Positions 2,165 to 33,918 of a DNA stretch of 64,000 nucleotides are shown here, piece after piece (position 1 is the stretch's first letter; each line of letters begins with the position of its first letter). Both the position numbers and the translations under genes were made by a program. The notes under the pieces are model-generated. The model did no database searches. It had not been told where the DNA came from and worked only from the letters and a program-made list of their open reading frames with translations. Source of the stretch: Minisyncoccota bacterium (GTDB lineage: Bacteria; Patescibacteriota; Minisyncoccia; Phycocordibacterales; JABAAK01); assembly GCA_965216295.1 (NCBI GenBank), contig OZ244141.1, positions 295,671 through 359,670 on the forward strand, written 5' to 3'.

Positions 2165-2190
2165 AGCTTATATTTTTTAAAATATAAGCT
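2165..2190. promoter_or_regulatory. perfect palindrome AGCTTATATTTT-tt-AAAATATAAGCT (12-bp arms) about 15 bp upstream of the methyltransferase start; candidate operator
   Basis: The inverted repeat was read directly. It lies between tRNA-Glu and the ATG at 2205. Confidence 0.4.
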
Positions 2191-2204
2191 ATACTTAACT
2201 TAAT

Positions 2205-5746: not shown

Positions 5747-5876
5747 AAATACGTAGTGTATTTATATATATATCATATCCTTATGTTATTTGTCAATTAT
5801 AAGGTGTCTTAGTGTTTAATAAAGAAAATTTGTGATTGTAAATATGGAGAAAAGGTATCAAAAAATAAACAAAACT

Positions 5877-8647: not shown

Positions 8648-8724
8648 ACACTGGAGAGGATTGTACCATCAAGAATTTGCTGAAAAAGAAAAAACAGTTC
8701 TCGTGTGGGGATAACACATGACGA

Positions 8725-9024: not shown

Positions 9025-9041
9025 AGAGAAAGCAAGAGAAG

Positions 9042-11155: not shown

Positions 11156-11242
11156 ATACACCACTATACCCCATATACCATAATTGTAAAATCGTTCTCA
11201 ATGGAAAAAAAGACACACAAAAATGTGATTTTTAATCACCGA

Positions 11243-12424
11243 TTAACTCACCTCATCGCTCACACGCGAGAGAAACTTCATAAATCGTTGAAAAAAACCA
11301 TCATCTTTCACTACTTTATGTTTTTTATGTGACCCTCCTGCGTCACACATCAGAGCATAACTAGTATTCCATATTGTTGGTGGCGTTGTCGTGTCAGTAA
11401 CAACACGAATATCTTTTTTTATTTTCGTATAGAGACCAACAGTATCAGAGAGTAGCTCAGGAAACTCTGGAAAGAGGCTTCCACCACCAATCAGAGTAAT
11501 GCCACCAGGGAATAGTTTATGAGTATCAATATCTTTCACATATGAAGCGATTTCTCGTGCGATGGAGAGGCGGTAAGTACTGAGCGCTTTTTGCAACGCA
11601 ATCTTGGGAAGTGGAGATTCTTTGTTGATATATTCTCGTTTCAATCGCTCTGCTTCTTGAACATTCACTCGCAGGGCAAGCGCAATGGCATTAGTGATTG
11701 ATGAACCACCAGCAGAGAGTGATCGTGCTCCAATTAAAACACCTCGTCTCCATATTGCTATGTTCGTAACATCAGCTCCGATGTCAACCACAACAGCCCC
11801 TATCTCACAATCCTCTTCAGAGATGAGCGTTTTGGTTGTTAAGGGAGATGGGATAATGGCATGTTCAACAACCAACGGTTCAAGGATTTTTTGGATAGCT
11901 TGAAGAGTTGCATTGGGATAGAGGAGACACCCATACTCTATTTCAATAGAACGTCGTGCTAAAGAGTCTTGGTAGGTGTGAGTTACATCGACACCGTCAA
12001 TGAGGATACTGATTGGTTCAATGGTGACAAAGAAATACTTTGGATAATCTTTCTGCAACTGTTCTTGTATTCTACTAACAAGTTGTTCCATGTAGTTTTC
12101 TCCAAAGACCATTGGTCGTTTGAGGTGGTGCTTCTTTTTTTTCCTGATAAACTGAGTGGCTGGATGACTTATCGACGCATAGATGGAATCAATCGGGGTA
12201 CCAATTTTTCCTTGCGTTACTTGGAGTGCGTGTTCAATTGCTTTTTTCAAAAAAGCTGGTTTTCGAATGGTACTTGCATGCATTCCTTTCGAAGTAACAA
12301 TCGTTCCTTCAAATGTCTCTCGTGCAGATGGTGTGTTTGGTGTGTCAGGTACTTGGTTGACGAGTACTTTGATAAAACCATTACCAATATCAAGTATTGC
12401 TGTTCCATGTTTTACCTTTCCCAT
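11243..12424 (-). CDS. ftsA: cell division protein FtsA (actin-like ATPase)
   Basis: 393 aa with actin-fold phosphate motifs (VVDIGADVTNIAIW, LIGGGS), sitting immediately upstream of ftsZ. Confidence 0.75.
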   Translation of the reverse strand: MGKVKHGTAILDIGNGFIKVLVNQVPDTPNTPSARETFEGTIVTSKGMHASTIRKPAFLKKAIEHALQVTQGKIGTPIDSIYASISHPATQFIRKKKKHHLKRPMVFGENYMEQLVSRIQEQLQKDYPKYFFVTIEPISILIDGVDVTHTYQDSLARRSIEIEYGCLLYPNATLQAIQKILEPLVVEHAIIPSPLTTKTLISEEDCEIGAVVVDIGADVTNIAIWRRGVLIGARSLSAGGSSITNAIALALRVNVQEAERLKREYINKESPLPKIALQKALSTYRLSIAREIASYVKDIDTHKLFPGGITLIGGGSLFPEFPELLSDTVGLYTKIKKDIRVVTDTTTPPTIWNTSYALMCDAGGSHKKHKVVKDDGFFQRFMKFLSRVSDEVS

Positions 12425-12429
12425 ACACG

Positions 12430-12846
12430 TTATAACAAACGAGCGGCATAGTGAGATTCTAGTTTTTCCATCTTCTCTCCATGCTTATAGCCTCGTATAT
12501 GGAGAATACCATGGATGATTAAAAACCCCACGTACCATTTGAGTGACACACCTTGTGTGTGTGCTTCTTTTTTTGCAAGAGGCAGGTTGATAAAAATTTC
12601 CCCAAGAGTACTTTTCTGTGCATTTTTTCCGACAGCCAGTTCATCAAAGGAGAATGTGAGTATGTTTGTTGGTGTGTCTTTCTTCCTATACACTCGGTTG
12701 AGTGTGCGTGAATAGACATCACCGATAAAAATAATGTGGAGAGAGGTTTTGTGTGTGAGCAATGTTGTGCCAAGAGCACGATACGGTACTCGCGGAGTTG
12801 GTTGTTTTGTTGTATTAAACAGCGTAACTGAATTGACCTGTGTCAC
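12430..12846 (-). CDS. ybeY: rRNA maturation endoribonuclease YbeY
   Basis: 138 aa with the HGILHIRGYKH (HxxxHxxGxxH) zinc motif of the UPF0054/YbeY family. Confidence 0.8.
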   Translation of the reverse strand: MTQVNSVTLFNTTKQPTPRVPYRALGTTLLTHKTSLHIIFIGDVYSRTLNRVYRKKDTPTNILTFSFDELAVGKNAQKSTLGEIFINLPLAKKEAHTQGVSLKWYVGFLIIHGILHIRGYKHGEKMEKLESHYAARLL

Positions 12847-12858
12847 AGTGGTAGAAAA

Positions 12859-13161
12859 CTAAAAACGCTTCTGGTTATTCGATGATCGATGAGATGAAAT
12901 ATTTGAAACCTTACCCATGCGGTAGAGAAGTTCATAGTTAGTTTTTCGTCGCAATTTATTGATACAGTTCTTTTTACGCACTGCTTTTGAAGGGAGCCGT
13001 GTACGGAATTTGTTTTGCTTTAATGAAAGGGCAATGCCAGAAATCTTCATTTTCTTTGAAAAACGTCGATAGAGTGAATTAACGTTCTCATCGCTTTTGC
13101 GTTCAACAATAATATTATATTTTCCTTCTCTCATAGATACGCTGAAAAGTGTAACACGCAC
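12859..13161 (-). CDS. rpsU: 30S ribosomal protein bS21 (start probably the internal ATG at 13134)
   Basis: The basic small protein aligns in pattern with bS21 (VERKSDENVNSLYRRFSKKM ... RKKNCINKLRRK). Confidence 0.6.
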   Translation of the reverse strand: MRVTLFSVSMREGKYNIIVERKSDENVNSLYRRFSKKMKISGIALSLKQNKFRTRLPSKAVRKKNCINKLRRKTNYELLYRMGKVSNISSHRSSNNQKRF

Positions 13162-13168
13162 ACAACGA

Positions 13169-14338
13169 TTAGTGCAAATATTTCTTTAATGTATCCAATC
13201 TATTCAATGAGATAGTGGTAAAAGCATGCGTGTCAGTTCGCCGCATACGAATAACACCACTTTCTAATTCTTTTTGACCAAAGATGAGGATAAAAGGATA
13301 CTTTCTCCCATCTTCTTCAAGCTGTTGTTTCATCTGCGTGTAGTGAAGACGGTGGGTCACTGCAATGTCATGTTTGTATAATTCTCCTAATAGTGAGAGT
13401 ACTTTGAAACGTGCCTGTGGTCCTACGTGGATAAAGAATATTTTTGCTGCGGAAGATTTCTTTTTCTTTGGTTGATGTTTTCCAACGGTTTTTTCAGGAA
13501 CAGAAATAGTAACTGAACTAATGGGAATAGTGCGACGGTAAAGTGTCATCGGTAATGTGTCATAGCGCGCACCATGAGCGTGCAACGTTGCATCTTCACT
13601 AACAATTTCAAAAATAGTATGAACCCCTTGATTCGTTTGAGTGACTAACTCAGGGGCAAGATCGTAGGGAATAGGGTAGGCATCAAGGTATTCCAATACT
13701 GATTTAAACTTTGTGTTTGCTGATTCTGATAGGAAACGCAATGTGGTTAATATTTTCTCTTGTAATTCCATGTGATCTTCATCAAAAATTAATCGATGAG
13801 CGTCAACGATAGATTCCCGACACAGACGTGCACACTCATTGGACATAAGGGGGCTGTGTTTTTGAAGTGTTTTGTGGAGAAGAGAGAAGTATTTTTCTGA
13901 GGTATTTCGATCACCCATAGAATTTAATCGAACGAGTATTTCCTTTGAACGCATCTGTTCCATAATCTGATATCCCGTGGTAATGAGAAGTGCATCAACG
14001 AATGGGTCGGTAATACCGATAGCGGTTAGCGTGAAGTGTGCGTCAATACTCCTATGCGGTACGGTAATGACAGGTCGTGTTTCACAATCAACAGTGCTAT
14101 GGAAAATAAAGAGCGGGACTTTTTCAAATTGCAGTCGTCGTTCAAAGTAAAAATGAAGAATAGAAGCGAGTTCTCCAATGGTTCCGCATCGGGGTACGGC
14201 TCCTCGAGAAGCAACAGTGGTATGTGGTATTCCTTTGTACTGTTGTACAACCTCGTGGAGAGGGGAAAACCCACTTGCAAGAGCAATACCACGTCCAGTT
14301 TCAAAAAGTTGTACTGCTGAGTGTTGTGTGCGAGACAT
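13169..14338 (-). CDS. hisS: histidine--tRNA ligase (class II), divergent N-terminus
   Basis: Carries the HisRS-specific GARYD motif, a HisA-region pattern (AIGITDPFVDALLI ... RLNSMGD), and a C-terminal anticodon-binding-like domain (IFGQKELESGVIRMRR). Confidence 0.65.
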   Translation of the reverse strand: MSRTQHSAVQLFETGRGIALASGFSPLHEVVQQYKGIPHTTVASRGAVPRCGTIGELASILHFYFERRLQFEKVPLFIFHSTVDCETRPVITVPHRSIDAHFTLTAIGITDPFVDALLITTGYQIMEQMRSKEILVRLNSMGDRNTSEKYFSLLHKTLQKHSPLMSNECARLCRESIVDAHRLIFDEDHMELQEKILTTLRFLSESANTKFKSVLEYLDAYPIPYDLAPELVTQTNQGVHTIFEIVSEDATLHAHGARYDTLPMTLYRRTIPISSVTISVPEKTVGKHQPKKKKSSAAKIFFIHVGPQARFKVLSLLGELYKHDIAVTHRLHYTQMKQQLEEDGRKYPFILIFGQKELESGVIRMRRTDTHAFTTISLNRLDTLKKYLH

Positions 14339-14343
14339 AGAGG

Positions 14344-14991
14344 CTATGGGTTGTTGACTGAAAAAGAGTGGGATCCAGGATAGACACCAATCTCAGAGAA
14401 TGGGTAGAGGCGTAAAAAGACCTTGCCAATGATAGCTTCTTGCGTTATTGTTCCCCAGAAACGAGAATCAAAACTGTTATTCCGATTGTCACCGAGCAAG
14501 AAATACTCTGTTGCATCGAGTGTTACTTTCAATGGTGTGTAGGTGAGCACTTCACTGCTCTTGAGGTAGGGTTCTTCAAGTTGGAAAACTTCTCCTCCAC
14601 TTGGAGTGATATAGATAGCATTGTTGGTGAAGCGGAGTGTGTCACCAGGTATCCCGATGATGCGCTTCAAGAGATATTTTGCAGTTCCTTTTTGTGGTGG
14701 TGGAGAGAATATGACGACGTCACCACGATGTGGTTCATTAAATCGATATCGTAAAAGTTCAACAACAAGATAGTCACCAACGACTGAGTCATTTTTATTA
14801 AACGTGGGATACATAGAACTTCCCTCAACGATGAATGGTCGTGCGATGAAACCCCATACCAATAGTGCAACGATGATACCGATGAGAATTGGGGAGAATT
14901 GTTTTATAAAAGAAACAAAAAAAATAGATTTCTTGTCAAGAGATACTGTCGTTTCTTCTTTCAATGTCTCTGTAGTATGTGTTGTGTCCAT
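14344..14991 (-). CDS. lepB: signal peptidase I
   Basis: 215 aa with an N-terminal TM, the catalytic Ser box GSSMYPTF, and the C-terminal GDNRNNSFDSRFWG box. Confidence 0.85.
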   Translation of the reverse strand: MDTTHTTETLKEETTVSLDKKSIFFVSFIKQFSPILIGIIVALLVWGFIARPFIVEGSSMYPTFNKNDSVVGDYLVVELLRYRFNEPHRGDVVIFSPPPQKGTAKYLLKRIIGIPGDTLRFTNNAIYITPSGGEVFQLEEPYLKSSEVLTYTPLKVTLDATEYFLLGDNRNNSFDSRFWGTITQEAIIGKVFLRLYPFSEIGVYPGSHSFSVNNP

Positions 14992-15069
14992 GTTTCATTA
15001 CCATACCACAGAGACTATGGTTTTTCAAATGAAATAATGTCACAACACCACAGAAGGTATACTGTCTAC

Positions 15070-15636
15070 ATGACACATCTCGTTCTTCTTGGTCTTGGTA
15101 ATCCAGATGAGTATCGTTGTACCCGTCACAATATTGGAAAAGACTTTGTGGAAGCAATGGGAGTTTGTGCGGGGATAACATGGCAAGACATTGGTAAGGG
15201 AAAAATTGGTTCCACAGAAGAAATTGATGCAAAAAAAAGAAAACGAGAAGTTACCTTTGTTGTTTCCACTGGCTTTATGAACAACACTGGCAGAGATGTA
15301 GCCAACATACTCAATACTGTATCGCTTGAAAAGCTTTTTGTCGTGCACGATGATGCCGATTTACCAGTAGGAACGGTACGTTTATCAGTTGGTGGGAGTG
15401 CTGGTGGTCACAAGGGAGTACAATCAATCATTGATTTTATCGGAACAGAAGATTTTACTCGCTTACGAGTTGGTATTGGTAGGGGAACACCTATGGAAAA
15501 ATTTGTCTTAGAGCGTTTTACGCACGATGAGTTTTTATGTATCACACAAGCACTGCAAGAGAAGGTGGCCGAGACCTTTTCCGAGTACATCACTTGTGGT
15601 GTGCAACGAGCAATGACGTGGTGCAATACGAAGTAA
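15070..15636 (+). CDS. pth: peptidyl-tRNA hydrolase
   Basis: Begins MTHLVLLGLGNPDEYRCTRHNIG, the Pth signature. The longer upstream TTG-initiated extension in the ORF track is rejected. Confidence 0.85.
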   Translation: MTHLVLLGLGNPDEYRCTRHNIGKDFVEAMGVCAGITWQDIGKGKIGSTEEIDAKKRKREVTFVVSTGFMNNTGRDVANILNTVSLEKLFVVHDDADLPVGTVRLSVGGSAGGHKGVQSIIDFIGTEDFTRLRVGIGRGTPMEKFVLERFTHDEFLCITQALQEKVAETFSEYITCGVQRAMTWCNTK

Positions 15637-16866
15637 CTACTTTTCGACACTTGCGCTACTTTCAGCAAAGGCAGATTTCGTTGTCTTATCGTTTTTATCC
15701 TTCAGCGTAAGGGTCAGTTTTTGCATTCCTGGATCAAAGTTTAGAATGACAAATTGATAACTCTTACCAATCTCTAAGTTTTCACGAAGATGTTCTTCAT
15801 CATCGTAACAAGAAACATGGATTAATCCAGTGACACCTGCTTCGATAGAAGCAAAAGCACCAAATGAACCACATTTAATGATGACTCCTGAGACGGCGTC
15901 ACCAACTTTATATCGAGTGCCGGCATCTTCCCACGGATTTGTATGCAATGCCTTAATAGAAAGTGAGTACTTACCATCTTGAACGTCAATAATTTTTACC
16001 ATCACCTGATCGCCAACGTTGTAGAAACGACGAGGATCATCAACTAAGCCCCAGTCCATTTCAGAGATGTGGACGAGTCCTTCAACAGCATCATCAATTC
16101 TGATAAAGACACCAAAATCAACGACACCGGTGACGACTCCTGGTTTCACATCACTCACCTTGTAGACTGTTTTTGTTTCTTTATCGTCTCCTTCTTCACC
16201 ATCGGCACCGCTAGCTTTTTGTTTGTGTTCGGAGAAGATAAGGTCATCATTCTTTATATCAATACTCATAATAACCACAGAGAGTTTCTTGGTAATGAGT
16301 TTTTTCAATTCATTCAAGATTGCATCCTTATTCGCATTCAATACCTTTGGATAATGTTTTTCTGAGAGTTGTGAAGCGGGGAGGAATCCTCGAATACCAT
16401 TCCATTCCATGATAAGGCCACCACGGTTTGCATTTTTCACAGTCACTTCGTATGTTCTACCATCTGCCATTGATCGTTCTGCTTCACTCCATATGAGAGC
16501 CTTGCGTGCTTCTTTCAAAGATAAATCAATATATCCCTCGTCTGTTTCTAGTGCGATAATCTTTGCAGAGATACTATCTCCCACTTTTATCTTACGCAAA
16601 ATCTCTTTTGCTAACAGGAATTCCCGCCCATAGATAACTCCCGTTCCAATAGGTGAGAGGTCAATGTAGACTGCTGAGCGATCAATGTTCACGACAGCAC
16701 CTTCAACGACGTCACCGACGCGATAGTATGGTACCAAGGTATCTTCAGCACCCTCAGCATTTTCAACGTTCTTAGTGTTTTCAATGTTTTCAGCACCATC
16801 AGCATTCTCAGTACCTTCAGTATTTTCAGTGTTTTCTTGTTGTTCTTGTATTTCTTCTACTTGCAT
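15637..16866 (-). CDS. rpsA: 30S ribosomal protein bS1 (multi-S1-domain) with acidic repetitive N-terminus
   Basis: 409 aa with several S1/OB domains (GDVVEGAVVNIDRSAVYID..., GDAVSGVIIKCGSFGAFASI...). The N-terminal ENTENTEGTENADGAEN low-complexity region is encoded by repetitive DNA. Confidence 0.75.
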   Translation of the reverse strand: MQVEEIQEQQENTENTEGTENADGAENIENTKNVENAEGAEDTLVPYYRVGDVVEGAVVNIDRSAVYIDLSPIGTGVIYGREFLLAKEILRKIKVGDSISAKIIALETDEGYIDLSLKEARKALIWSEAERSMADGRTYEVTVKNANRGGLIMEWNGIRGFLPASQLSEKHYPKVLNANKDAILNELKKLITKKLSVVIMSIDIKNDDLIFSEHKQKASGADGEEGDDKETKTVYKVSDVKPGVVTGVVDFGVFIRIDDAVEGLVHISEMDWGLVDDPRRFYNVGDQVMVKIIDVQDGKYSLSIKALHTNPWEDAGTRYKVGDAVSGVIIKCGSFGAFASIEAGVTGLIHVSCYDDEEHLRENLEIGKSYQFVILNFDPGMQKLTLTLKDKNDKTTKSAFAESSASVEK

Positions 16867-17046
16867 TGTTGTTTTTTGGGATGTAGACGGAAGCTACTGC
16901 AAAAATTGCAGGGATTACTCCACCGCCACAAAACATGAATAATAAATAGTGTCGCATATGGTGCGAATACTATTACCATTCCAGTATATCTCTATATCGG
17001 AGGTATTTGCAAATGATGGTACTGTGGGTTTACACTCTATATACAT

Positions 17047-17631
17047 ATGGAATTTCGTGCGCTGAAAAATTTTTCTCTCTTCTACAAGCATGCCGATAGT
17101 ATTGTCCTTTTCAATCCTGCAAAAAATGAGATTAAAAAAAAGGACGAAACGATATCCCTTTTTTCTTTTTCTGTTCCAGTGTCAGGATGGGGTGAGGGGC
17201 ACACTACGGAAACATTTTGTGTGAATAGCCCTGGTGAGTATGAATATCATTCAACCACTATTCGTGGTTACGGCTCAATGACAACCATCAACGGTACACC
17301 ACTGCAAGTAACTACCTATTTGGTAAACAACGACCTCTTTCAAATTCTCTTTCTCGCTCCTCTCCAAGAGAAAGCAGTCACTGATGAATTGAGCAAACGC
17401 ATTACCACCGCTGATATTGTTGCTGTTCCGGTTGGTGCAAATGTTCTTTCTTTTGCTGATGCAACACAATTCGCTTCAAATGTGTCTGCAAAGCTGTTAC
17501 TGCCATACGGCAACGTCCTTGATGATAAGCAGATAGCAAAAGAGGTCGGTGAACGAAAAGCGGTAAGTAAGCATACCGTAAAACGACAGGATTTAGCGAC
17601 TGACACCTTGCAAACCATTGTCTTGTCGTAG
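17047..17631 (+). CDS. hypothetical protein
   Basis: 194-aa ORF with an ATG start, divergent from rpsA. No confident family call. Confidence 0.4.
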   Translation: MEFRALKNFSLFYKHADSIVLFNPAKNEIKKKDETISLFSFSVPVSGWGEGHTTETFCVNSPGEYEYHSTTIRGYGSMTTINGTPLQVTTYLVNNDLFQILFLAPLQEKAVTDELSKRITTADIVAVPVGANVLSFADATQFASNVSAKLLLPYGNVLDDKQIAKEVGERKAVSKHTVKRQDLATDTLQTIVLS

Positions 17632-17632
17632 T

Positions 17633-17902
17633 ATGTTTTTTCAAACAAAAAGAGATACAGTTTTATTTGTAAAAATTTTACTGTTTCTTGGAATACCGTG
17701 GTTTATTTTTTTCATCATTACCACTTCCTCACGGGAAACAAGTACAACGTCTGGTGAGGCAATCTTTTTTGAAGCATTGCAGGAAGCTGGAGAGTCTTTA
17801 CGAGATGACGCACAAAAGGTGCAGGCAGAGTTTGCAGAGATCATTGAACAACTACCAGAAGAAGAAATCCTGGAAGCGACAAAAAGTGAGGAAACTCCTT
17901 GA
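17633..17902 (+). CDS. small membrane protein, hypothetical
   Basis: ATG at 17633 (MFFQTKRD...). One TM (ILLFLGIPWFIFFIITT) and an acidic C-terminus. The ORF track begins at an upstream TTG. Confidence 0.35.
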   Translation: MFFQTKRDTVLFVKILLFLGIPWFIFFIITTSSRETSTTSGEAIFFEALQEAGESLRDDAQKVQAEFAEIIEQLPEEEILEATKSEETP

Positions 17903-17937
17903 TAGACGAGCCGTGATATACTGGAGATGTTACTACT

Positions 17938-20388
17938 ATGGCTAAAAAAGACGACATACAGAAACAACCACAAGGAGTAGTCCAAGAAGATATAAGCACT
18001 GAGATGCGTAAAGCATATCTCGACTATGCGATGTCCGTCATTACCACCCGAGCGCTCCCAGATATTCGAGATGGTCTTAAGCCAGTGAATCGTCGCATCC
18101 TCTACGCTATGCATGGTATGGGATTACGATCAACGGTGAAGACAAGAAAATCTGCAGCAGTAACTGGTGAGGTACTTGGTAAATTTCACCCTCACGGTGA
18201 CAGTGCGGTATATGAAGCAATGGTCAAGTTAGTGCAACCATTTACCACTCGGTATCCCCTCGTTATCGGACAAGGAAACTTTGGATCAATTGATGGTGAT
18301 AACGCTGCTGCTGCTCGATACACTGAGGTGAAACTATCAAAAATAGCAGAAGAGATGGTGGTTGCGATTGATAAAGAGACCGTACCGTTTCGTCCAAACT
18401 ATGAAAACACACTGAAGGAGCCTGTGGTATTACCTGCAATACCACCGTTGCTACTGCTCAACGGAACGCTTGGTATTGCCGTTGGAATGGCAACAAACAT
18501 TCCACCTCATAATCTACGAGAAATCTGTGAAGCGACACTGTATCTCATTGAACACCCACAAGCAACCACAGAAGATATCATGCAATTCGTACAAGGTCCT
18601 GACTTTCCACTCGGTGCTGTTGCGTACGATACTAATGCTATGAAACAAGTGTATGCCACAGGGCGAGGCGGTATTATCGTTCGTGGAGAATCAGAAATAG
18701 TGGAGACACCCAAAGGCACTGCCATCATCATTACTTCAATTCCATACCGAGTGAATAAGTCTGAGTTAATTGGAAAGATAGGCACATTGGTGCGTGATAG
18801 AAAGATAGAAGGAGCAAAAGATTTGCGAGATGAATCGACTGAAGATATTCGCATTGTATTGGAATTGAAAGGATCGGCACAGCCATACCGTATTCAAAAT
18901 ATACTCTACAAGCACACACAACTGGAAGATGTTTTTCACTACAATATGGTGGCACTCATTGATGGGGTTCCACAAACAGTCAACTTACAGACACTCCTAC
19001 AAAGCTACATTGGTCACCGTCGTATTGTGGTGGAACGTCGCTTTACCTTTGAATTGAATCGCGCAAAAGAACAAGAACATATATTCAGTGGATTAAAAAA
19101 AGCACTTGATCACATTGATGCCATTATCTCTCTCATACGAGGATCAAAAGATGTTGCAACTGCACGGAAAGCATTAATGAAGAAATTTTCATTTTCTGAG
19201 AAGCAGACACAAGCTATTCTTGAGATGAAGTTGCAGAAGCTGGCTGGTCTTGAGCGAAAGAAAGTGGAAGATGAATTGAAACAATTGCAAAAAACAATAG
19301 CAACTATTGAAGCAATATTGAAGAGCAGTAAAAAGATTGATGCAGAAGTTTCTAAAGAAATAGTTCATCTTCGCGATACGTATGGTGATGATCGTCGTAC
19401 TAAAATTGTTCAACAAGCACCAGGAACTATTGCCCACGATGACCTTATCCCTGAAACATTGTGTATGCTCATGATTACTGAAGGGGGATATATCAAAAAG
19501 ACAGCATACGATGCCTATAAAAAACAAAAAAGAGGTGGTATTGGTACCAAAGGTGCTGAATTGAAAGCAGAAGATTTCACTACAATATCGCTGAGTGCTC
19601 ATTCACACGACACTCTCTTCTTCTTTACCGATCGTGGCAAGGTGTACAAGTTAAAGACGTATGATATTCCAGAAGGGAAGCGTACTTCGAAAGGTCGTGC
19701 TTTAGTTAATTTCATTGGTATTGATACTGATGAGCGAGTAACATCAATTGTTCCTGTTTCAAAATCCATTGAAAAAAAAGGATACCTTTTGTTTGTCACG
19801 AAAAAAGGGGTGGTAAAAAAAGTTGCGGTAAAGCAGTTTGATAACATTCGTAAAACTGGCATCATTGCAATTTCACTTGAATCAAAAGATCAACTCGTTA
19901 GTGTGAATTTACTCTCAAGTGAGGATGATGTTTTTCTCGCAACTGGCAAGGGAAAATCTATTCGTTTCAAAGGAAGTGATGTTCGTGCAACGGGAAGGGG
20001 TGCAAAAGGAGTGCGGGGCATTATGTTACAAAAAGACGATACAATCATTGGCGGATTAATACTTCCCAAAGAGGTCAAAGAGAATGTTAAGATTTTAATT
20101 GTTTCTGCCAAGGGATATGGGAAACAAACTAAAAATAATGCGTTTAAAGTGCAGAAACGCGGTGGTTCTGGTATTAAGGTCGCAGACATTACAGAGAAAA
20201 CGGGGCGACTCATTAGCGCACACATGGTCGATGATGCAGGTGCCGATATGGTTGCCATGTCACGAAAAGGGCAGATAGTGCGTTTCAGTACCAACGAAGT
20301 GCCAACACAAGGAAGGCAAACCCAAGGGGTGCGCATCATGCGTTTGCGAGGTGATGATACTGTGACATCTTCAAACAAGTTACAATAA
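17938..20388 (+). CDS. gyrA: DNA gyrase subunit A
   Basis: 816 aa. N-terminal [28 protein letters not shown] with the catalytic Tyr region, and C-terminal beta-pinwheel repeats. Confidence 0.9.
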
Positions 20389-20394
20389 TTGTGT

Positions 20395-21696
20395 ATGGCT
20401 CAAAAAAATACATTTAGCATTGTTTTAACAGCTATTTTTGGCGTCCTCTTACTTGTTGGTTTTGCTAGCTTTGCTCTCTTTGGAAAAGTTAATCCTCCTG
20501 ATGCAGCAGGAGATAGTATTCTCTATCGAGTGCATGTTTGGGGAACACTGCCAGAGTATGTTTTAGAACCAATTATTGAAATATTAAATAGTCAGGAAGG
20601 AGCTAGTTATAGCGAAATTGTTTATTCTCAAAAAAACCCCAAAACGTTTATAGAAGAATATGTTCGTGCCATTGCTATTGGCAAAGGACCATCACTTGTT
20701 TTACTTCCACATGAAGTATTGTTGCAAAATCAGGATGTTTTACAATTAATACCGTACAATTCGGTGGTACCGAGATCTGAATATGAGAATCTATTTATCT
20801 CTGCGGCAGATGTTTTTTGGAAAGACAAAGGTGCTCTTGCCATACCATTTCTTACTGATCCACTTATTCTGTACTATAACGAGAATATTAGAATTAAGAG
20901 TCGTATTCCAGATATCACAGAATATACATGGGAGATGTTTACTGCTGATTCTGTGTTCAAAAATGCGATACAGCGCGTTGGCACATCGGTACATCAAGCG
21001 TTATTTCCATTCGGTGTGGCAGGTAACTATGCTAACGTTGCCGACGTGTTCACGACATTGATATTGCAGGTACAATCAACTCAGTCAAGAACAGGAATTT
21101 CAGATGTTTTCTCATTTTTTGAAACATTCGCTAATCCAAAAAGTCCATTGTATACCTGGAACGCATCACTTCCTGAGGCGCGAAACATGTTCATCTCTGA
21201 GAAATTACTTTTTTATATTGGTTTTGCGAGTGAGTATGAGAGTATTCGAAGGCAAAACCCCAATCTTGTCTTTCGGGTTGCGGTAGTGCCACAGATAGCT
21301 GAAGGGGCTACTCGTCCAAGTACCTTCACTCGTCTCCATGCATTTGCCTTACCAAACAGAGTACAGATACCTGATGCAGCACTTCAAGCAGCATACGACA
21401 TACTTCGTTCTGTACTTACTTCAGCAAGAGGTGGCAAGGCACTTGAAGAAGAGCGGAAGCAGATAACGGCATTTTTTTCTATACCACCGGCGGTACGTGA
21501 TTTTACTCCGCCAGCAGACGCACCGTATTACTGGAATATTTTTGCACGGTCTGCACAAATTGGAGAAACTTGGTATGACACACAGCATATCCAAAGTAAG
21601 GAAGAGATTATTAATGCTATTAATGCTTTTAACAAAGGAGCAGCATCAATTGGTGAAGCGGAAAGATTACTACCTAAAGGATTAGTTAATAGGTAA
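20395..21696 (+). CDS. membrane-anchored extracellular protein, possibly solute-binding-protein-like; hypothetical
   Basis: About 433 aa with an N-terminal TM anchor, starting 7 nt after the gyrA stop. Weak resemblance to periplasmic binding proteins. No ABC transporter partners are nearby. Confidence 0.4.
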   Translation: MAQKNTFSIVLTAIFGVLLLVGFASFALFGKVNPPDAAGDSILYRVHVWGTLPEYVLEPIIEILNSQEGASYSEIVYSQKNPKTFIEEYVRAIAIGKGPSLVLLPHEVLLQNQDVLQLIPYNSVVPRSEYENLFISAADVFWKDKGALAIPFLTDPLILYYNENIRIKSRIPDITEYTWEMFTADSVFKNAIQRVGTSVHQALFPFGVAGNYANVADVFTTLILQVQSTQSRTGISDVFSFFETFANPKSPLYTWNASLPEARNMFISEKLLFYIGFASEYESIRRQNPNLVFRVAVVPQIAEGATRPSTFTRLHAFALPNRVQIPDAALQAAYDILRSVLTSARGGKALEEERKQITAFFSIPPAVRDFTPPADAPYYWNIFARSAQIGETWYDTQHIQSKEEIINAINAFNKGAASIGEAERLLPKGLVNR

Positions 21697-21732
21697 TGAA
21701 ATGTAACATACATACTATATACTGCAGGTATT

Positions 21733-22083
21733 ATGATTGAGATTTATGCACATGGAGCAACGGTAAACAATCCAATACAGGCGAGTAGTTTTGAGAGTTT
21801 AACGTTGAAAATCCTTGATGGAGTGGTTGACGTTCTAATTCCTTTTATGATTTTAGCGGTTGTGTGGACAGGCACACTACTGGTCTTTTCGATAGGAAAA
21901 CCAGAAGCTATGGTTCGCAGTCGTAATCATTTACTCTGGACATTGATTGGTTTCATTATTGTACTTGCGGCAAAGGGTATTCTCAAAGTTGTTGAAACAA
22001 CAGTGAAAGATGTGCAAGAAATAGCGGTTGTTTATATCAATGAAACAGTAGTACCGCATACATTACAAAACAGGTATGTATAA
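21733..22083 (+). CDS. small two-TM protein (first member of the tandem paralog array)
   Basis: 116 aa with two hydrophobic helices separated by the charged loop SIGKPEAMVRSRNH. Confidence 0.5.
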   Translation: MIEIYAHGATVNNPIQASSFESLTLKILDGVVDVLIPFMILAVVWTGTLLVFSIGKPEAMVRSRNHLLWTLIGFIIVLAAKGILKVVETTVKDVQEIAVVYINETVVPHTLQNRYV

Positions 22084-22399
22084 TATATTTCATAATCGAT
22101 TTATCATTTGTTGTTCAGGTTTGTTTTTTTTTGTGATGAGCACGGTGTTGGCTTTTGCACAACCAACACTCCAAGGCATTGCTGACACGATAACCGGTCT
22201 TTTTGCGTTTGGATTGATACCTCTCGCAATGGCACTTCTTTTCCTTTTCTTTTTCTGGAATATAGCGGTCTTTTTGTTTAGAGAGGGAGACTACAAAAAA
22301 CGAGCAAAAGAAAGACTCTTATGGTCAATTGTTTGGGTATTTATGCTATTTTCACTATATGGGTTTGTTATCGTTTTACGCATTTTATTCACTTATTAA
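22076..22399 (+). CDS. small secreted two-TM protein, VirB2/TrbC-pilin-like topology (paralog 2)
   Basis: 107 aa. Sec-type signal peptide ending AFAQ, then two TM helices (LIPLAMALLFLFFFWNIAVFLF; LLWSIVWVFMLFSLYGFVIV) separated by REGDYKKRAKER. Confidence 0.6.
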   Translation: MYNIFHNRFIICCSGLFFFVMSTVLAFAQPTLQGIADTITGLFAFGLIPLAMALLFLFFFWNIAVFLFREGDYKKRAKERLLWSIVWVFMLFSLYGFVIVLRILFTY

Positions 22400-22533
22400 T
22401 GACGCATATACAGTATGGTTAGAGTATGGATTTTAGAATTCCACACTCTCTATCTCTCTTCTAGATCTACCTGGTATACTATAAGTATTGATTGGTTAGG
22501 TGTGTTTATTAGATTTACGTAGTTACTATAATT

Positions 22534-22947
22534 ATGAAAGTTGGTGTATTTACTATTAAAAAAGATAGTTTAATCTATTCTTTATTCTTTACAATTCTCT
22601 TGTTTGTATTGCAAGTGAGTTTTGTGTTTGCACAAGGTGAACTTGATCGTTTTCAAGAGACTCTTGAAGATGTATCAAATCTTGTTAATACCTCGTCATT
22701 TATTGCTATCGGTCTCGCCTTTCTTTTCTTCTTTTGGAATTTAGCAACGTTTATTCTTTCGGCTGATACTGAAGCCAAAGAAACAGCGAAGGGGAAAATG
22801 GGTTGGGCTATTATTGCAATCTTTGTTATAACTGCCATTTGGGGAATTGTTGCTTTCATCGGTGGTGCACTTGGAATAGATCCTGAAGAAAAAGCGAACG
22901 TATTCGACTTACCTGCCTATGGAGCATCTAGCGTCCTTGGAAATTGA
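22534..22947 (+). CDS. small secreted two-TM protein (paralog 3)
   Basis: 137 aa. Signal peptide ...SFVFAQG and core SSFIAIGLAFLFFFWNLATFILSADTEAKETAKGKMGWAIIAIFVITAIWGIVAFIGG. Confidence 0.65.
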   Translation: MKVGVFTIKKDSLIYSLFFTILLFVLQVSFVFAQGELDRFQETLEDVSNLVNTSSFIAIGLAFLFFFWNLATFILSADTEAKETAKGKMGWAIIAIFVITAIWGIVAFIGGALGIDPEEKANVFDLPAYGASSVLGN

Positions 22948-23116
22948 TATCTTATTCTGTATTTATGCTCGTTTGTTGAATGGGTGGGTGTAGTGAATTT
23001 TGAGAATCTGGTTGGGAGAGAGGGGTGTAGGTAGCATTTTTCATGTTTTGATTTTTACTACCCCTCTTTCATCCCTGAGAGGGTGTGGTCACCATTGTGT
23101 GCCGTATAATGAATAT

Positions 23117-23662
23117 ATGCTAGCGAGTTGTGTTTATACAAAAAATAGAGTAATAGTGATTGTTGCTGTATCTGTGAGTATATTTTTATATTTTCTTGCT
23201 AACATGGTCAGCGCTGCTCCGGCACCACCACCAACGGCAGTTGACGAAGTTACTAGAATAACGGATGTTGTACGAGGGATTATAGTTTTGGTTAATATTC
23301 TTTCTTTTATAGCAATTGGTTTAGCTTTTTTATATTTCTTTTACAACCTAGCAACCTCAATATTGCAATCAGATTCTATTGAAAAAAGGGCAGAAGCATA
23401 CAGGAGAACGGTATGGGGCATTATCGCAATATTTATTCTTGTGAGTATATGGGGAATTATGCAATTTCTAGGAAGCCTTATATTTGGAAGTAATGTTTCT
23501 GGAGTATCCTTTGTAATACCGATACCTGAAACAATAAAGACCAAACAAACCCTACGATCAGGGACCGGTACTGATATGAAAGTAGTTAAAGAGGACGGTA
23601 CTGATATGAAAATAGTTAAAGAGGGCGGTACTGATATGTCAGTATCACCAGGTGGTAATTAA
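23117..23662 (+). CDS. small secreted two-TM protein with C-terminal GTDMK(V/I)VKE tandem repeats (paralog 4)
   Basis: Start chosen at the internal ATG at 23117, which gives a signal peptide. The core SFIAIGLAFLYFFYNLATSILQSD...WGIIAIFILVSIWGIMQFLG is near-identical in pattern to paralog 3. Confidence 0.6.
   Translation: MLASCVYTKNRVIVIVAVSVSIFLYFLANMVSAAPAPPPTAVDEVTRITDVVRGIIVLVNILSFIAIGLAFLYFFYNLATSILQSDSIEKRAEAYRRTVWGIIAIFILVSIWGIMQFLGSLIFGSNVSGVSFVIPIPETIKTKQTLRSGTGTDMKVVKEDGTDMKIVKEGGTDMSVSPGGN
23566..23645 (+). repeat. 33-bp coding tandem repeat (about 2.5 copies) encoding GTDMK(V/I)VKE(D/G)
   Basis: ggtactgatatgaaaRtagttaaagaggRc is repeated head-to-tail inside the 23117..23662 gene. 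Confidence 0.75.
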
Positions 23663-23700
23663 TAGCTATACAATAGACTGATGATAGATAATAAAATAAT

Positions 23701-23967
23701 ATGTTAGTATTTTCTCAGAGTTTGACAGTTAATGGTTTTGTTGATAACGTATTTACTCATGTCGTTAACCCTGTTATCATTATTCTTTTTTACTTAGCAC
23801 TTTTTTGGTTCGTATGGCATTTAGCACTATATTTACTAAATTCAGAAGATGCTGGAAAAAGAAAGGAGAATCTAAAGCACATACTCTACGGATCAATAGG
23901 TTTGTTTATTATTGTTTCTATACAAACTATTTTCCTTTTCCTTAATAGGCTAGCCGAAGTGGGATGA
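23701..23967 (+). CDS. small two-TM protein (paralog 5)
   Basis: 88 aa. Two TM helices (IIILFYLALFWFVWHLALYLL; ILYGSIGLFIIVSIQTIFLFL) separated by NSEDAGKRKENLKH. Confidence 0.5.
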   Translation: MLVFSQSLTVNGFVDNVFTHVVNPVIIILFYLALFWFVWHLALYLLNSEDAGKRKENLKHILYGSIGLFIIVSIQTIFLFLNRLAEVG

Positions 23968-23997: not shown

Positions 23998-24084
23998 TGG
24001 TGCCGAGGAGAGGACTTGAACCTCCACGGGATTAATCCCACTTGCTCCTAAGGCAAGCGCGTCTACCAATTTCGCCACCTCGGC
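23998..24084 (-). tRNA. tRNA-Leu (anticodon TAG), long variable arm, CCA encoded
   Basis: Reverse complement gives GCCGAGGTGGCGAAATTGGTAGACGCG ... CTTGC-CTTAGGA-GCAAG ... GGTTCAAGTCC ... CCTCGGCACCA, 87 nt. Confidence 0.85.
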
Positions 24085-24094
24085 TTTTTGCATG

Positions 24095-24167
24095 TCCGCC
24101 CACTAGGATTCGAACCTAGGACCTACCGGTTAAGAGCCGGTTGCTCTACCAGCTGAGCTATGAGCGG
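24095..24167 (-). tRNA. tRNA-Lys (anticodon CTT)
   Basis: Reverse complement gives CCGCTCA-TA-GCTCAGCTGGTAGAGC-A-ACCGG-CTCTTAA-CCGGT-AGGTC-CTAGGTTCGAATCCTAG-TGGGCGG-A. The 5' end is C1:G72. Confidence 0.75.
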
Positions 24168-24206
24168 TCTGTGTCCATACCGCTTTTGTATAGTAACACC
24201 ATCTAG

Positions 24207-24292
24207 TGCCGGAGGTGGGAATTGAACCCACACACTCGTATTTGAGTACACGATTTTAAGTCGTGCGCGTCTACCAATTTCGCCACTCCGGC
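24207..24292 (-). tRNA. tRNA-Leu (anticodon TAA), long variable arm
   Basis: Reverse complement gives GCCGGAGTGGCGAAATTGGTAGACGCG-CACGA-CTTAAAA-TCGTG ... GGTTCAATTCC ... CTCCGGC-A, 86 nt. No encoded CCA. Confidence 0.85.
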
Positions 24293-24300
24293 AACACTTG

Positions 24301-24660
<360 letters not shown>

Positions 24661-31205: not shown

Positions 31206-31586
31206 GTGTCAAGTACTTGCGGTACAATACTAGTGATGTTACTTCATGAAATCGCATTGATTGCGTATGCACAAGGGAAAAAAGGAATCGCAGTTGATTG
31301 CGATTACGTTAACTGTACGTTTGATAGTTTCGCAGAACTATTTAATAATCTTCTTGAATTTTTTATTACTATTGCTATTATTCTTGCTACTTTTGGTGTA
31401 GTTATGGTTGGTATTAATTATGTAGTTGCAGCATTTGGTGGAGGCTCAGCTTCCGCACACGCAAAGGTTCGAGAATTGGTTAAATCAGTTCTCTTAGGAT
31501 TAATTTTGGTACTTTGTGCATACCTTGTCGTGAAATTAGTATTTACTACGCTTGGGTATACAGGAGGAGATCCATTTACTTTTTAA
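31206..31586 (+). CDS. small secreted two-TM protein, distant paralog of the 22-24 kb array
   Basis: GTG start 6 nt after an AGGAGGG ribosome-binding site. Has an ...IAYAQG signal-like segment, then FFITIAIILATFGVVMVGINYVV and VLLGLILVLCAYLVVKLVF helices. Flanked by tRNA-Tyr and tRNA-Trp. Confidence 0.5.
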   Translation: MSSTCGTILVMLLHEIALIAYAQGKKGIAVDCDYVNCTFDSFAELFNNLLEFFITIAIILATFGVVMVGINYVVAAFGGGSASAHAKVRELVKSVLLGLILVLCAYLVVKLVFTTLGYTGGDPFTF

Positions 31587-31880: not shown

Positions 31881-32771
31881 TCATATCAGGGATTTTTCAA
31901 GATGGGTATATATCTCGTCTCGGTTCGTTGGGGAAAACCAGGCAATACCGTGCATTTTTGTAAACCAGGTCATTTGTCGTTTTGCGTACTTTTGAATATC
32001 TTGTATCAGTATTTTTTTCGTTTGTTCTTCATCGCACCCAGAGAAAAGAGATGCGATTGCGGTATATTCTAATCCCAGTCCTTCTAACCACTGTGGTGAA
32101 ACACCATCTTTGATAAGTTGCTCACCTTCATGTTTGATACCTTCCCATCGACTCTCCACTCGTTCTGCAATGTGTGCATTGAGTGTTTCACGAGGAAGTT
32201 GGAGTCCAATGCCGATATATGGATAGCGTGGGATTGGTGTTCGTTGTGGTATGTGGCCTTCCGTTTCGTATATTTCAAGAGCCCGGATGAGACGGGTTTT
32301 ATTTGTTTTTCCAATGGTATGTGCTCGTGATACATCTTTTGTCAGAAGCATTTTGTAGAGTGCATCACTAGTCATGTTCATTACACGACGACGAAAGATA
32401 GGGTTTTGTTTAATTGGAGCGTAAGTATTTTTAAACACAAGTGCGTTCACGTAGAACCCAGTCCCACCAACGATGATAGGTTGTTTGTTTTGTTGAAAGA
32501 TCCTATTGAGTATAGGTACGGCTTGAGTTTCAAATTCATGAACACTGTAGTGTTCTCCTGCAGCAGCAACATCAAGCATGTGATGGGGAACACCATCCAT
32601 TTCTTTGTGAGACACTTTACCAGAACCACTATCTAAACCACGATACACTTGTCGTGAATCTGCTGAGACTATTTCACCGCTGTATCGTTTTGCAATTGTA
32701 ATACCAAGCGCACTTTTTCCTACCGCTGTAGGACCTACGATGAGGATAACTGTTGTGTTTGCTGCTGACAT
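31881..32771 (-). CDS. miaA: tRNA dimethylallyltransferase
   Basis: P-loop IVGPTAVGKSALGITIAKRYSGEIVSADSRQVYRGLD matches the MiaA N-terminus. The start is taken at the internal ATG at 32771, because the longer ORF-track extension would run through the tRNA-Leu gene. Confidence 0.8.
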   Translation of the reverse strand: MSAANTTVILIVGPTAVGKSALGITIAKRYSGEIVSADSRQVYRGLDSGSGKVSHKEMDGVPHHMLDVAAAGEHYSVHEFETQAVPILNRIFQQNKQPIIVGGTGFYVNALVFKNTYAPIKQNPIFRRRVMNMTSDALYKMLLTKDVSRAHTIGKTNKTRLIRALEIYETEGHIPQRTPIPRYPYIGIGLQLPRETLNAHIAERVESRWEGIKHEGEQLIKDGVSPQWLEGLGLEYTAIASLFSGCDEEQTKKILIQDIQKYAKRQMTWFTKMHGIAWFSPTNRDEIYTHLEKSLI

Positions 32772-32855
32772 GGTGCCGAAGGTGGGACTTGAACCCACAC
32801 ACCCAAAGGTACACGATTTTGAGTCGTGCGCGTCTACCAATTCCGCCACTTCGGC
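32771..32855 (-). tRNA. tRNA-Leu (anticodon CAA), long variable arm, CCA encoded
   Basis: Reverse complement gives GCCGAAGTGGCGGAATTGGTAGACGCG-CACGA-CTCAAAA-TCGTG ... GGTTCAAGTCC ... CCTTCGGCACCA. The final A of CCA is the A of the miaA ATG. Confidence 0.85.
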
Positions 32856-32922
32856 AATATGCGTAGTGTATAGCACTATTGAATCAATATCAACAAAAAG
32901 TCAGCAATGGTATACTACGGTT

Positions 32923-33918
32923 ATGGATACGAAACCATCACTCAGTATTTTTTGGGTTTCAGTTGATAAGGTGCACCCTAACCCACTGCAACCAAGGCAC
33001 GAGTTTGATAGCAACAAACTCAAAGATTTGTCGGCATCTATTCATCAGTACGGTGTTTTGCAACCACTTGTTGTTACCAAGAAAGATTTGATGAATGAAT
33101 CGGGAGATATGCAGATACAGTATGAACTTATCGCTGGTGAACGACGATTACGTGCTTCAAAAATGGCTGGATTGCGAGAAGTTCCTGTCCTCATTCGTTC
33201 TGGTGAGGAAGAAAGGCACATGAAACTAGAACTTGCTATTGTTGAAAATTTACAACGGGAGGATCTCAATCCAGTTGATCGAGCAAAAGCATTTAATCAG
33301 TTAGCAGATGAATTTTCATTAAAACAATCAGAGATTGCTCGACGATTTGGTAAAAGTAGGGAATACATTGCAAATAGCATTCGCCTTCTCTCTCTTCCAG
33401 AAAGTATGATAACAGCATTGCACGATGGAAAAATCTCAGAAGGGCACGCTCGATCCCTTTTAATGCTCTGTGACAAGCCAGAAGAACAAGAAACACTTTT
33501 CAATGATGTTGTGTTTCGACGACTCACCGTTCGTGAAGCAGAGCGATGTGCACGAAAGATAGCGATACACAAAGTGAGAAAACAAACGAGAGACCTATCA
33601 CCAGACATCATAGCGTTGGAAGAAAAAATGGAACACTCACTTGGAGCAAATGTTCATATTGAGAAACGAGGATTAGTTGGTGGTAGAATCACCATTGATT
33701 TTAACAATGAAGAAGACTTACAGAATATTATTCAACGCGTTTCGTCACAGACATCAGATTCCAAAGACGGTGACATTGAGTATGTTGAGACGAATGAAAA
33801 TCCTCTCGGCGAAGAAAAGGTGGTGACACCACAAAAAGAAGATTATACAGATGATGCTGATACAACTCCAGCAAAAAAGAAGGATGATTTATATACGTTC
33901 AAGAATTTTTCCTTATAA
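32923..33918 (+). CDS. parB: chromosome partitioning protein ParB (no adjacent parA)
   Basis: ParB box IAGERRLRASKMAG and an HTH region. The start is the ATG at 32923 (MDTKPSL...); the upstream ORF-track extension overlaps tRNA-Leu and is rejected. Confidence 0.8.
   Translation: MDTKPSLSIFWVSVDKVHPNPLQPRHEFDSNKLKDLSASIHQYGVLQPLVVTKKDLMNESGDMQIQYELIAGERRLRASKMAGLREVPVLIRSGEEERHMKLELAIVENLQREDLNPVDRAKAFNQLADEFSLKQSEIARRFGKSREYIANSIRLLSLPESMITALHDGKISEGHARSLLMLCDKPEEQETLFNDVVFRRLTVREAERCARKIAIHKVRKQTRDLSPDIIALEEKMEHSLGANVHIEKRGLVGGRITIDFNNEEDLQNIIQRVSSQTSDSKDGDIEYVETNENPLGEEKVVTPQKEDYTDDADTTPAKKKDDLYTFKNFSL

Follow-up and report, generated by a model that had tools for sequence, protein, structure and literature searches.

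Five small membrane-protein genes downstream of gyrA

The subject of this study is a tandem array of five small genes in a 64,000-nt stretch of DNA (hereafter, the window) from a Minisyncoccota bacterium (assembly GCA_965216295.1, contig OZ244141.1, positions 295,671 to 359,670). The array is chromosomal and comprises five consecutive, co-oriented open reading frames (ORFs) on the + strand, numbered p1 to p5 (Table 1), which lie within 21733–23967, downstream of gyrA and of a gene for a solute-binding protein (SBP) homologue. An earlier note, made from the sequence alone, had described here five co-oriented two-helix ORFs with a charged loop and had likened them to VirB2/TrbC pilins; the ORF list and hydropathy confirmed this arrangement. 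The length range that it gave, 88–182 amino acids (aa), was right for p5 (88 aa), but p4 has 181 aa, not 182, from its conserved ATG. This ATG (23117) is aligned with the p4 start of a sister strain and was used here; the mechanical ORF list begins p4 at a TTG at 23000 (220 aa).

In a 19-residue Kyte-Doolittle scan, each mature protein contained two hydrophobic segments of at least 19 residues with 10–14 mostly basic residues between them. The inter-helix loops were GKPEAMVRSRNH, REGDYKKRAKER, SADTEAKETAKGKM, QSDSIEKRAEAYRR, and NSEDAGKRKENLKH. Since these loops are basic, the established positive-inside rule predicts a hairpin whose N- and C-termini both lie outside. An additional N-terminal helix resembling a signal peptide was found in p2 (AFAQ), p3 (FAQG), and p4 (SAAPA), in line with the three Sec-type signal peptides proposed earlier, and the helix strings quoted in the earlier note (SFIAIGLAFLFFFWNLATFIL in p3, SFIAIGLAFLYFFYNLATSIL in p4, and FLFFFWNIAVFLF in p2) were exact. 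The AlphaFold2 (AF2) model of p3 (pLDDT 73) placed the signal peptide in helix 10–32 and the hairpin in helices 37–75 and 79–112 (pLDDT 84–91).

BLAST comparisons connected the five proteins with each other. The closest pair was p3 and p4 (48% identity, E 1.5e-22), followed by p2 and p3 (30%, E 3e-13), p2 and p4 (E 1e-10), and p4 and p5 (37.5%, E 3e-10); the paralogy of p1 was the weakest (24% identity with p2, E 6e-4). Pairwise identities ranged from 16 to 48%, with a mean of ca. 28%. The gaps from the SBP gene through p5 were 36, −8, 134, 169, and 38 nt in order, the SBP gene begins at the stop codon of gyrA, and a consensus scan found no terminator-like site on the + strand between 20389 and 23967. 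From this compact spacing, the abutting gyrA stop and SBP start, and the lack of + strand terminator-like sites, the array may be co-transcribed with gyrA and the SBP gene.

Assignment to the pilin family PF18895

On profile evidence, the five genes are assigned to PF18895 (T4SS_pilin), a VirB2-like pilin family typical of Patescibacteria and named for type IV secretion systems (T4SS). All five paralogs matched PF18895 (E 3e-8 to 4e-4), and four of them passed its gathering score of 26.6 bits (p1, 30.9; p3, 34.0; p4, 26.7; and p5, 33.7 bits). p2 scored 20.8 bits, under the gathering score, and is tied to p3 and p4 by BLAST. The two-helix α-hairpin expected of the family was seen in the hydropathy of all five proteins and in the AF2 model of p3. 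In a cross-genome alignment covering four genomes, 18 of 18 orthologues matched PF18895 at E ≤ 0.01, and 3 of the 18 also matched the canonical TrbC/VirB2 family PF04956 (gathering score 27.9 bits; best E 1.4e-5). Matches to NCBIfam NF045849 (Mbov_0395 pilin-like) reached 33.6 bits for p5, 23.2 for p4, 22.2 for p1, and 17.6 for p3, all under the cut-off of 40 bits. A homologue from Moraniibacteriota is labelled 'pilin' at NCBI and 'type IV secretion system pilin' at JGI. Foldseek returned nothing at E ≤ 0.001 for the p3 hairpin model; the assignment is thus one made by hidden Markov models and not by fold. The VirB2/TrbC-like architecture suggested in the earlier note is therefore upheld, and similarity to pilin families, which had been set beforehand as a test, was found in the form of PF18895. 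The further suggestion of a distinct surface or envelope family stands insofar as the proteins belong to PF18895 rather than to canonical TrbC, but that family has already been curated and published.

The family is very large: an exhaustive profile search returned 73,152 cluster representatives at E ≤ 1e-3. Many of the best matches were single polypeptides with 2–17 tandem pilin hairpins, each with its own linker. Examples of such single chains in this representative search are P0016 (552 aa), P0018 (353 aa), and P0050 (1775 aa). These poly-pilins appear to be genuine fusions of arrays, which would imply co-assembly or polyprotein processing. Fused hairpins make topological sense only if each unit has both ends outside, and they thus support the hairpin orientation predicted above.

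The earlier note had also mentioned two-helix bacteriocins and holins. Small size, two transmembrane (TM) helices, and a charged loop would suit such peptides, and some relatives have an amidase gene within the array. However, PF18895 matches were significant, no annotated PHROG family was matched (only families of unknown function, at E ≥ 0.02), and no phage, immunity, or ABC-exporter genes and no lysis cassette were found nearby. The amidase of the relatives is, moreover, on the opposite strand and is absent in the window. We therefore regard a holin-like or bacteriocin-like nature of these ORFs as having a negligible chance of being correct.

Besides the array, a solitary sixth pilin-like ORF occurs in the window between tRNA-Tyr and tRNA-Trp (Table 1). 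It scored 22.7 bits against PF18895 (E 1e-4), under the cut-off, and was matched by our pilin alignment profile at E 1e-4. Another weak match of this profile, the minus-strand ORF 8728–9093, was discarded as a pilin; it encodes a DUF333 protein.

Five orthogroups under purifying selection

A neighbour-joining tree of pilin domains was calculated from the window and seven relatives. Five clades with one member per genome were resolved by the window, L001, L002, L003, L005, L006, and L007; L003 lacked p1, so that the p1 orthogroup was present in six genomes and those of p2, p3, and p5 in seven each. The five pilins of the Moraniibacteriota relative (L008) clustered together outside these clades. 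Apart from one swap in L006, array order was constant across the clade genomes, and gene order was kept in at least 18 other loci, which bears out the conservation in related genomes on which the earlier note had made its reading depend. The closest loci with the same synteny came from metagenome-assembled genomes of Candidatus Kaiserbacteria, Pacebacteria, and Paceibacterota with GyrA ca. 63% identical; a scan of the genome collection with the alignment of p3 orthologues gave 3 loci. By these nearest genomes, the host is a Paceibacteria/Kaiserbacteria-like organism.

The ratios of nonsynonymous to synonymous substitution rates (dN/dS) against the sister strain were 0.21 for p1, 0.29 for p2, 0.32 for p3, and 0.24 for p5, and 0.64 for p4, the fastest-evolving paralog. 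By these sequence comparisons, the five paralogs constitute ancient, non-redundant orthogroups under purifying selection. The view of the earlier note that this is a duplicated family and not a set of random ORFs is supported by the BLAST paralogy, the PF18895 matches of all five, the kept order, and the dN/dS values.

Tandem pilin genes could instead serve as interchangeable major pilins for antigenic or host-range variation, used one at a time, a role that has been suggested for VirB2 paralogs in Bartonella and Anaplasma. A 2025 survey made this proposal for the Patescibacteria arrays (PMC12102498), and the low identity among paralogs, the strain-variable locus described below, and the variable repeat tail of p4 are in its favor. 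However, orthologues occur one-to-one at the same array position even though GyrA identity has fallen to ca. 63%, which speaks against gene conversion or turnover; dN/dS of 0.21–0.32 indicates purifying selection, and variation proceeds by a swap of the whole block, not by shuffling of copies. Five pilin types conserved for so long argue for a heteromeric structure over antigenic spares, and the sequence pattern fits five non-redundant subunits. We consider the use of the array as spares quite improbable.

Linkage of the array to a solute-binding protein gene

By profile and model evidence, the gene preceding the array encodes a membrane-tethered, orphan homologue of family-1 extracellular SBPs. 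As a single sequence, it had no match in Pfam. A profile of seven orthologues matched in PDB the sulfoquinovosyl-glycerol-binding protein SmoF (7nbz_A, E 8e-10) and MalE-like SBPs, and its homologues belong to PF01547/PF13416 and are named 'extracellular solute-binding protein'. It shares 25% identity (E 6e-23) with the SBP_bac_1 protein encoded 5′ of the Moraniibacteriota array. The AF2 model (pLDDT 87, pTM 0.83) has an N-terminal helix (4–30) followed by a MalE-like fold, and Foldseek matched it to sugar SBPs in PDB (E 5e-19, TM-score 0.65–0.77). No permease or ATPase of an ATP-binding cassette (ABC) transporter (BPD_transp, ABC_tran) adjoined the SBP gene, either in the window or in five relatives whose gene tables were inspected.

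Among 19 non-redundant loci that run past the 3′ end of the SBP gene, 18 had pilin genes directly 3′ of it, usually three to seven; the exception was L021. Short contigs (L024 and L026) had one pilin-domain ORF each after the SBP gene. One of the 18 loci, on a Moraniibacteriota chromosome, otherwise differs in its surroundings. Array copy number varied from 3 to 7 among relatives.

Three further features of the relatives' loci were observed. In all more distant lineages, including Moraniibacteriota, a gene for an S-adenosylmethionine-dependent methyltransferase of 176–179 aa (Methyltransf_11/25/31) lies directly 5′ of the SBP gene. No homologue was found in the window by tblastn (E ≤ 1e-5), and the window's clade lacks the gene; ancestrally, the module seems to have been methyltransferase-SBP-pilins. 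In three relatives, pilins 2 and 3 are separated by an opposite-strand gene for Amidase_2 (N-acetylmuramoyl-L-alanine amidase); the window has a 134-nt gap there (22400–22533) and no Amidase_2 gene. This enzyme could be a VirB1-like cell-wall-opening function. Finally, a 400-aa protein with a signal peptide and a C-terminal T4SS_pilin hairpin is encoded 3′ of the SBP homologue of L024 (716–1915, +). Its extracellular region of ca. 300 residues is rich in Thr, Ser, Gly, and Pro and has two similar segments, forming a large surface domain on a pilin.

Probable replacement of the SBP-pilin block between strains

The sister strain, known from contig L001/L013 of another sample, was compared with the window. 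DNA identity was ca. 99.5% over 7941–20410 (ca. 12 kb), and GyrA was identical at 816 of 816 residues, with a synonymous divergence (dS) of 0.03 for gyrA. From 20411, a position ca. 20 nt inside the SBP gene, the identity of the DNA fell to 54–82% through the SBP gene and all pilin genes. The junction is a single clean point in coding sequence, with 100% identity up to 20410 and 54–78% thereafter. Protein identities were 72% for SBP, 69% for p1, 58% for p2, 67% for p3, 49% for p4, and 70% for p5. Across SBP and the pilins, dS was 0.65–1.0, a 20- to 30-fold jump over gyrA at one point. Since faster protein evolution alone leaves dS unraised, this jump implies different ancestry, either by recombination or by old polymorphism. 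These comparisons indicate that the SBP and pilin genes form a surface cassette that varies between strains and has undergone recombination. The extent in Table 1 is a minimum, since the sister contig breaks off within p5. The repeat in the p4 tail also differed between the strains, with 33 nt × 5.5 at the same place in the sister strain. Only the window genome and this one other had SBPs above 70% identity in the SBP search (the next match was at 36%), and a look-up with the exact GyrA sequence found the same single contig.

The divergence might be an artifact of chimeric assembly in one metagenomic contig, which would concern the claim of strain variation alone. Two strains only are available, both assemblies are metagenomic, and the sister contig ends inside p5. 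Against this, the junction at 20410 is single, clean, and inside coding sequence, and the divergent part keeps its gene order and intact frames under purifying selection. Furthermore, in an organism with a 72% identical SBP, gyrA should have diverged clearly (SBP identity is ca. 30% in relatives with 63% GyrA identity), so that there would be no identical sequence at which to mis-join. We therefore consider a chimera very improbable.

An identity dip to ca. 92% was also seen 5′ of gyrA at window 17500–18000, between strains otherwise 99–100% identical; it spans the end of an ORF for a metallo-β-lactamase-fold protein and a small ORF of 90 aa.

Table 1 Positions of the pilin-like array and associated features in the window and in related loci.
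Feature	Sequence	Position	Strand	Remarks
p1	Window	21733–22083	+	116 aa; without signal peptide; most divergent paralog; two TM segments
p2	Window	22076–22399	+	107 aa; signal peptide ..VLAFAQ/P (cut after Q); 8-nt overlap with p1
p3	Window	22534–22947	+	137 aa; signal peptide ..FVFAQ/G (cut after Q)
p4	Window	23117–23662	+	181 aa; signal peptide ..MVSAAPA/P (cut after last A); extracellular C-terminal tail
p5	Window	23701–23967	+	88 aa; 6-residue leader MLVFSQ; without hydrophobic signal peptide
Tandem repeat, p4 C-terminal tail	Window	23566–23638	+	30 nt × 2.4; peptide GTDMK(V/I)VKE; TRF score 132
SBP homologue	Window	20389–21696	+	435 aa from TTG 20389; NCBI start ATG 20395 (433 aa)
Strain-variable cassette, minimum extent	Window	20411–23909		Left breakpoint at ca. 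20410; sister contig ends inside p5
Solitary sixth pilin-like ORF	Window	31206–31586	+	126 aa; ..IAYAQ/G signal peptide; two TM helices
S26 signal peptidase gene	Window	14344–14991		
tRNA cluster Leu-tag, Lys-ctt, Leu-taa, Cys-gca	Window	23998–24372	-	Convergent; closes the locus; ARAGORN and Rfam
Methyltransferase	L008	8032–8562		Also in L015–L022
Methyltransferase	L027	9458–9997		
Methyltransferase	L028	9468–10004		
Amidase_2	L002	8839–9441	-	
Amidase_2	L005	8559–9215	-	
Amidase_2	L007	8557–9117	-	
Segment downstream of array	L002	11493–18382		
Segment downstream of array	L005	11078–17771		
Segment downstream of array	L006	10691–15759		
Segment downstream of array	L007	12281–16568		

Comparison with known pilin arrays and related systems

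A VirB2 array has been defined as at least two pilin genes in tandem or one non-pilin gene apart, with highly divergent paralogs (PMC12102498). In that study, Quinonero-Coronel et al. (2025) searched 3,035 Patescibacteria genomes with PF04956 and PF18895 and found 441 arrays of 2–11 pilin genes with a mean identity of 25% and a maximum of 54%. Of the 3,035 assemblies, 2,417 (ca. 80%) had VirB4, and VirB2-like pilins occurred in 1,948 VirB4-positive assemblies, near virB4 in 1,135 and not near it in ca. 800 (PMC12102498). With its five consecutive genes, 16–48% identity, and closest loci in Patescibacteria, the window array is a further example of these published arrays, which are widespread in the phylum. 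It shares with them the family PF18895, tandem co-oriented genes, a chromosomal location, a monoderm host phylum, and a mixture of members with and without recognizable signal peptides, and its identities (mean ca. 28%, maximum 48%) are close to theirs. In contrast, the PF18895 pilins of Southlakia epibionticum (SEML1_0014–0019), which are essential, lie in a T4SS cluster where they adjoin VirB6, VirB4, and PrgI (Wang et al. 2023; PMC10633639). The window array is outside a T4SS cluster and is fixed 3′ of gyrA and the orphan family-1 SBP gene. In the literature searched on these arrays, we found no mention of the SBP link, one-to-one orthogroups, or strain-level block replacement. Thus, the orthogroups in conserved order, the SBP linkage, and the strain-variable block appear to be new.

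Like the VirB2/TrbC/TraA subunits (PF04956) of the T-pilus and F-pilus, the window proteins combine a leader with a hydrophobic α-hairpin whose short basic loop is cytoplasmic and whose ends are outside, and some members have weak PF04956 cross-matches. They differ in a PF04956 score under gathering, in the lack of a PDB pilin found by profile, in their monoderm host, in having five subunits instead of one major pilin, and in having no adjacent VirB3–B11 genes. The pilin-like protein of Mycoplasma integrative and conjugative elements (NF045849, Mbov_0395/ICE_MMCAP2_0565) ranked first among NCBIfam matches in four of the five paralogs. Like them, it is a small two-TM protein, from a monoderm MPF_FATA-type system, but the window scores were under the cut-off, and the array is not such an element, as no integrase, relaxase, or TraE/TraG gene was nearby.

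Pilin, O-antigen, and capsule loci are strain-variable surface loci that are replaced by homologous recombination in conserved flanks. The SBP-pilin block resembles them in its near-identical flank, its sharply bounded, old, divergent alleles, its kept gene order, and products predicted to be surface-exposed. It differs in that only the left boundary and two alleles are available, in belonging to an ultrasmall epibiont-type bacterium, and in coupling an SBP with VirB2-like pilins.

Possible function of the array

Taken together, we consider it fairly probable that the array encodes VirB2-like pilins which are assembled by a T4SS-type machine into a heteromeric surface structure, with the SBP as an accessory and the block as a unit of exchange. 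Each protein would enter the cytoplasmic membrane so that both termini face outward and the basic loop inward, and the leaders of p2–p4 would be cut by signal peptidase I, for which the S26 peptidase gene of the window (Table 1) is a candidate. A VirB4/VirB6-type machine, whose genes would lie elsewhere in the genome, would then extract subunits from this membrane pool and assemble them. The product might be a heteromeric surface filament or conduit of a T4SS-like apparatus needed for a host-attached lifestyle, with the membrane-tethered, sugar-SBP-like protein most likely as an accessory partner that binds a ligand or the host surface. The whole SBP-plus-pilin block would be swapped between strains by homologous recombination; such exchange is expected because a surface structure would be under host-specificity or phage selection. 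The Amidase_2 gene inside the array of three relatives is counted as a link of this structure to the cell wall. A 2025 review describes Patescibacteria systems as unique among those of monoderms in their potential for conjugative pili (PMC12857230).

Several observations weigh against assembly by a T4SS-type machine. When 41 window ORFs, including every ORF of at least 250 aa without a homology-based assignment, were scanned against Pfam, no VirB4, VirB6, or VirD4 was found among them, as the earlier note had already stated for the window. In the fetched relatives, no VirB4-like P-loop ORF lay within ±10 kb of the array, where IF2 alone had a P-loop, and no T4SS cluster genes (VirB3/B4/B6 etc.) stood beside the array in the window or in relatives. 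By hydropathy, p1 and p5 lack a signal peptide. The canonical family PF04956 was matched by p1 alone (18.3 bits, E 0.0027), under the gathering score, and the pilin profile detected no solved pilin among PDB sequences at E ≤ 10, only PsbK-like noise. Chains with 2–17 fused hairpins fit a classical homopolymeric pilus poorly unless they are processed, and the role of the T4SS of Patescibacteria has been described as completely unknown (PMC11665869).

Some of these observations would suit a different explanation, in which VirB2-homologous hairpins and the SBP form a T4SS-independent, fixed heteromeric complex with 10 TM helices that acts as an unconventional, binding-protein-dependent device for uptake or signalling of host-derived sugars. 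The strict linkage of SBP and array across lineages in two different genomic contexts, the lack of both an ABC permease/ATPase beside the SBP and a VirB4 within ±10 kb, the five one-to-one orthogroups (suggesting fixed stoichiometry), the natural fusions of 2–17 hairpins per chain, and the co-variation of SBP and pilins as one recombination block are all compatible with it. On the other hand, the PF18895 arrays of Saccharimonadia are inside the T4SS cluster, lack an SBP, and are essential together with the cluster; copy number among relatives varies from 3 to 7, and VirB4 is present somewhere in 80% of Patescibacteria assemblies. We know of no precedent for a transporter made of VirB2-like hairpins, which also counts against such a complex. 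We regard this explanation as rather unlikely and retain assembly into a T4SS-type surface structure as the preferred one.

A further reading is offered only tentatively. The (methyltransferase)-SBP-five-pilin block may be a self-contained host-interaction cassette, distinct from the Saccharimonadia arrays in T4SS clusters. Its five non-redundant subunits would build the heteromeric surface structure, and a co-evolving, tethered sugar-binding protein would set specificity as an adhesin, a tip, or a cargo receptor. Recombination with an anchor at the gyrA stop codon would swap whole alleles between strains that are otherwise identical, thereby changing host range or evading phages.

The means by which ultrasmall Patescibacteria recognize their hosts and feed on them are still an open question, and a T4SS-like system was essential in the one species tested. 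The array itself leaves that picture unchanged; the coupling to an SBP and the cassette replacement at the strain level are the parts of most interest. A pilin-linked sugar-binding protein is a candidate for a specificity or cargo component that is open to expression and ligand screening, and, given the block-wise swap of alleles, this locus probably helps to determine host range or susceptibility to phages. The variable block could also serve as a natural marker in strain-resolved metagenomics.

Neighboring genes and other features of the window

The identified window ORFs were all of housekeeping or defence type. Housekeeping genes encode, among others, a MurE-like ligase, FtsZ/FtsA, YbeY, signal peptidase S26, GyrA, IF2, ClpB, RelA, TopA, GyrB, a class II aminoacyl-tRNA synthetase, DnaE, SMC, DnaB, and RecR. 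Between the array and rbfA/infB, relatives hold 3–7 kb of genes (Table 1), whereas the window has only four tRNA genes; this segment is a second variable part of the locus. The downstream ORFs of the relatives (260–726 aa) were considered as T4SS parts and rejected, as they had no significant Pfam family and no Walker A motif; the exception was a Bact_surface_Ig-like protein in L002.

Two low-GC islands adjoin tRNA genes. The first, at 2000–6000 (GC ca. 0.28 vs. 0.41), adjoins tRNA-Glu (2036–2108) and has ORFs at 2205–3296 (+) and 3288–5522 (-). One product is a type II DNA methyltransferase (PADLOC MTase_II, E 2e-43; Pfam N6_N4_Mtase); the other, encoded convergently, is a 744-aa HATPase_c_3 protein that matched no defence family. 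The island has the appearance of an acquired module for restriction or defence. The second, at 49693–54100 (GC ca. 0.26), adjoins tRNA-Gly (54027–54100) and has ORFs at 49693–51132 (-), 51231–52010 (+), 52310–52954 (-), and 53444–53986 (-). One ORF encodes a 479-aa KAP-family P-loop NTPase that matched PDC-S20, a candidate defence family (E 9e-10); another encodes a DUF805 membrane protein, and the other two are without a family. Elsewhere, the listed starts of the MiaA-like ORF (31881–32876, -) and the ParB ORF (32740–33918, +) overlap mutually. The overlap (32740–32876) also covers tRNA-Leu(caa) at 32771–32855, and the true starts are probably further in.

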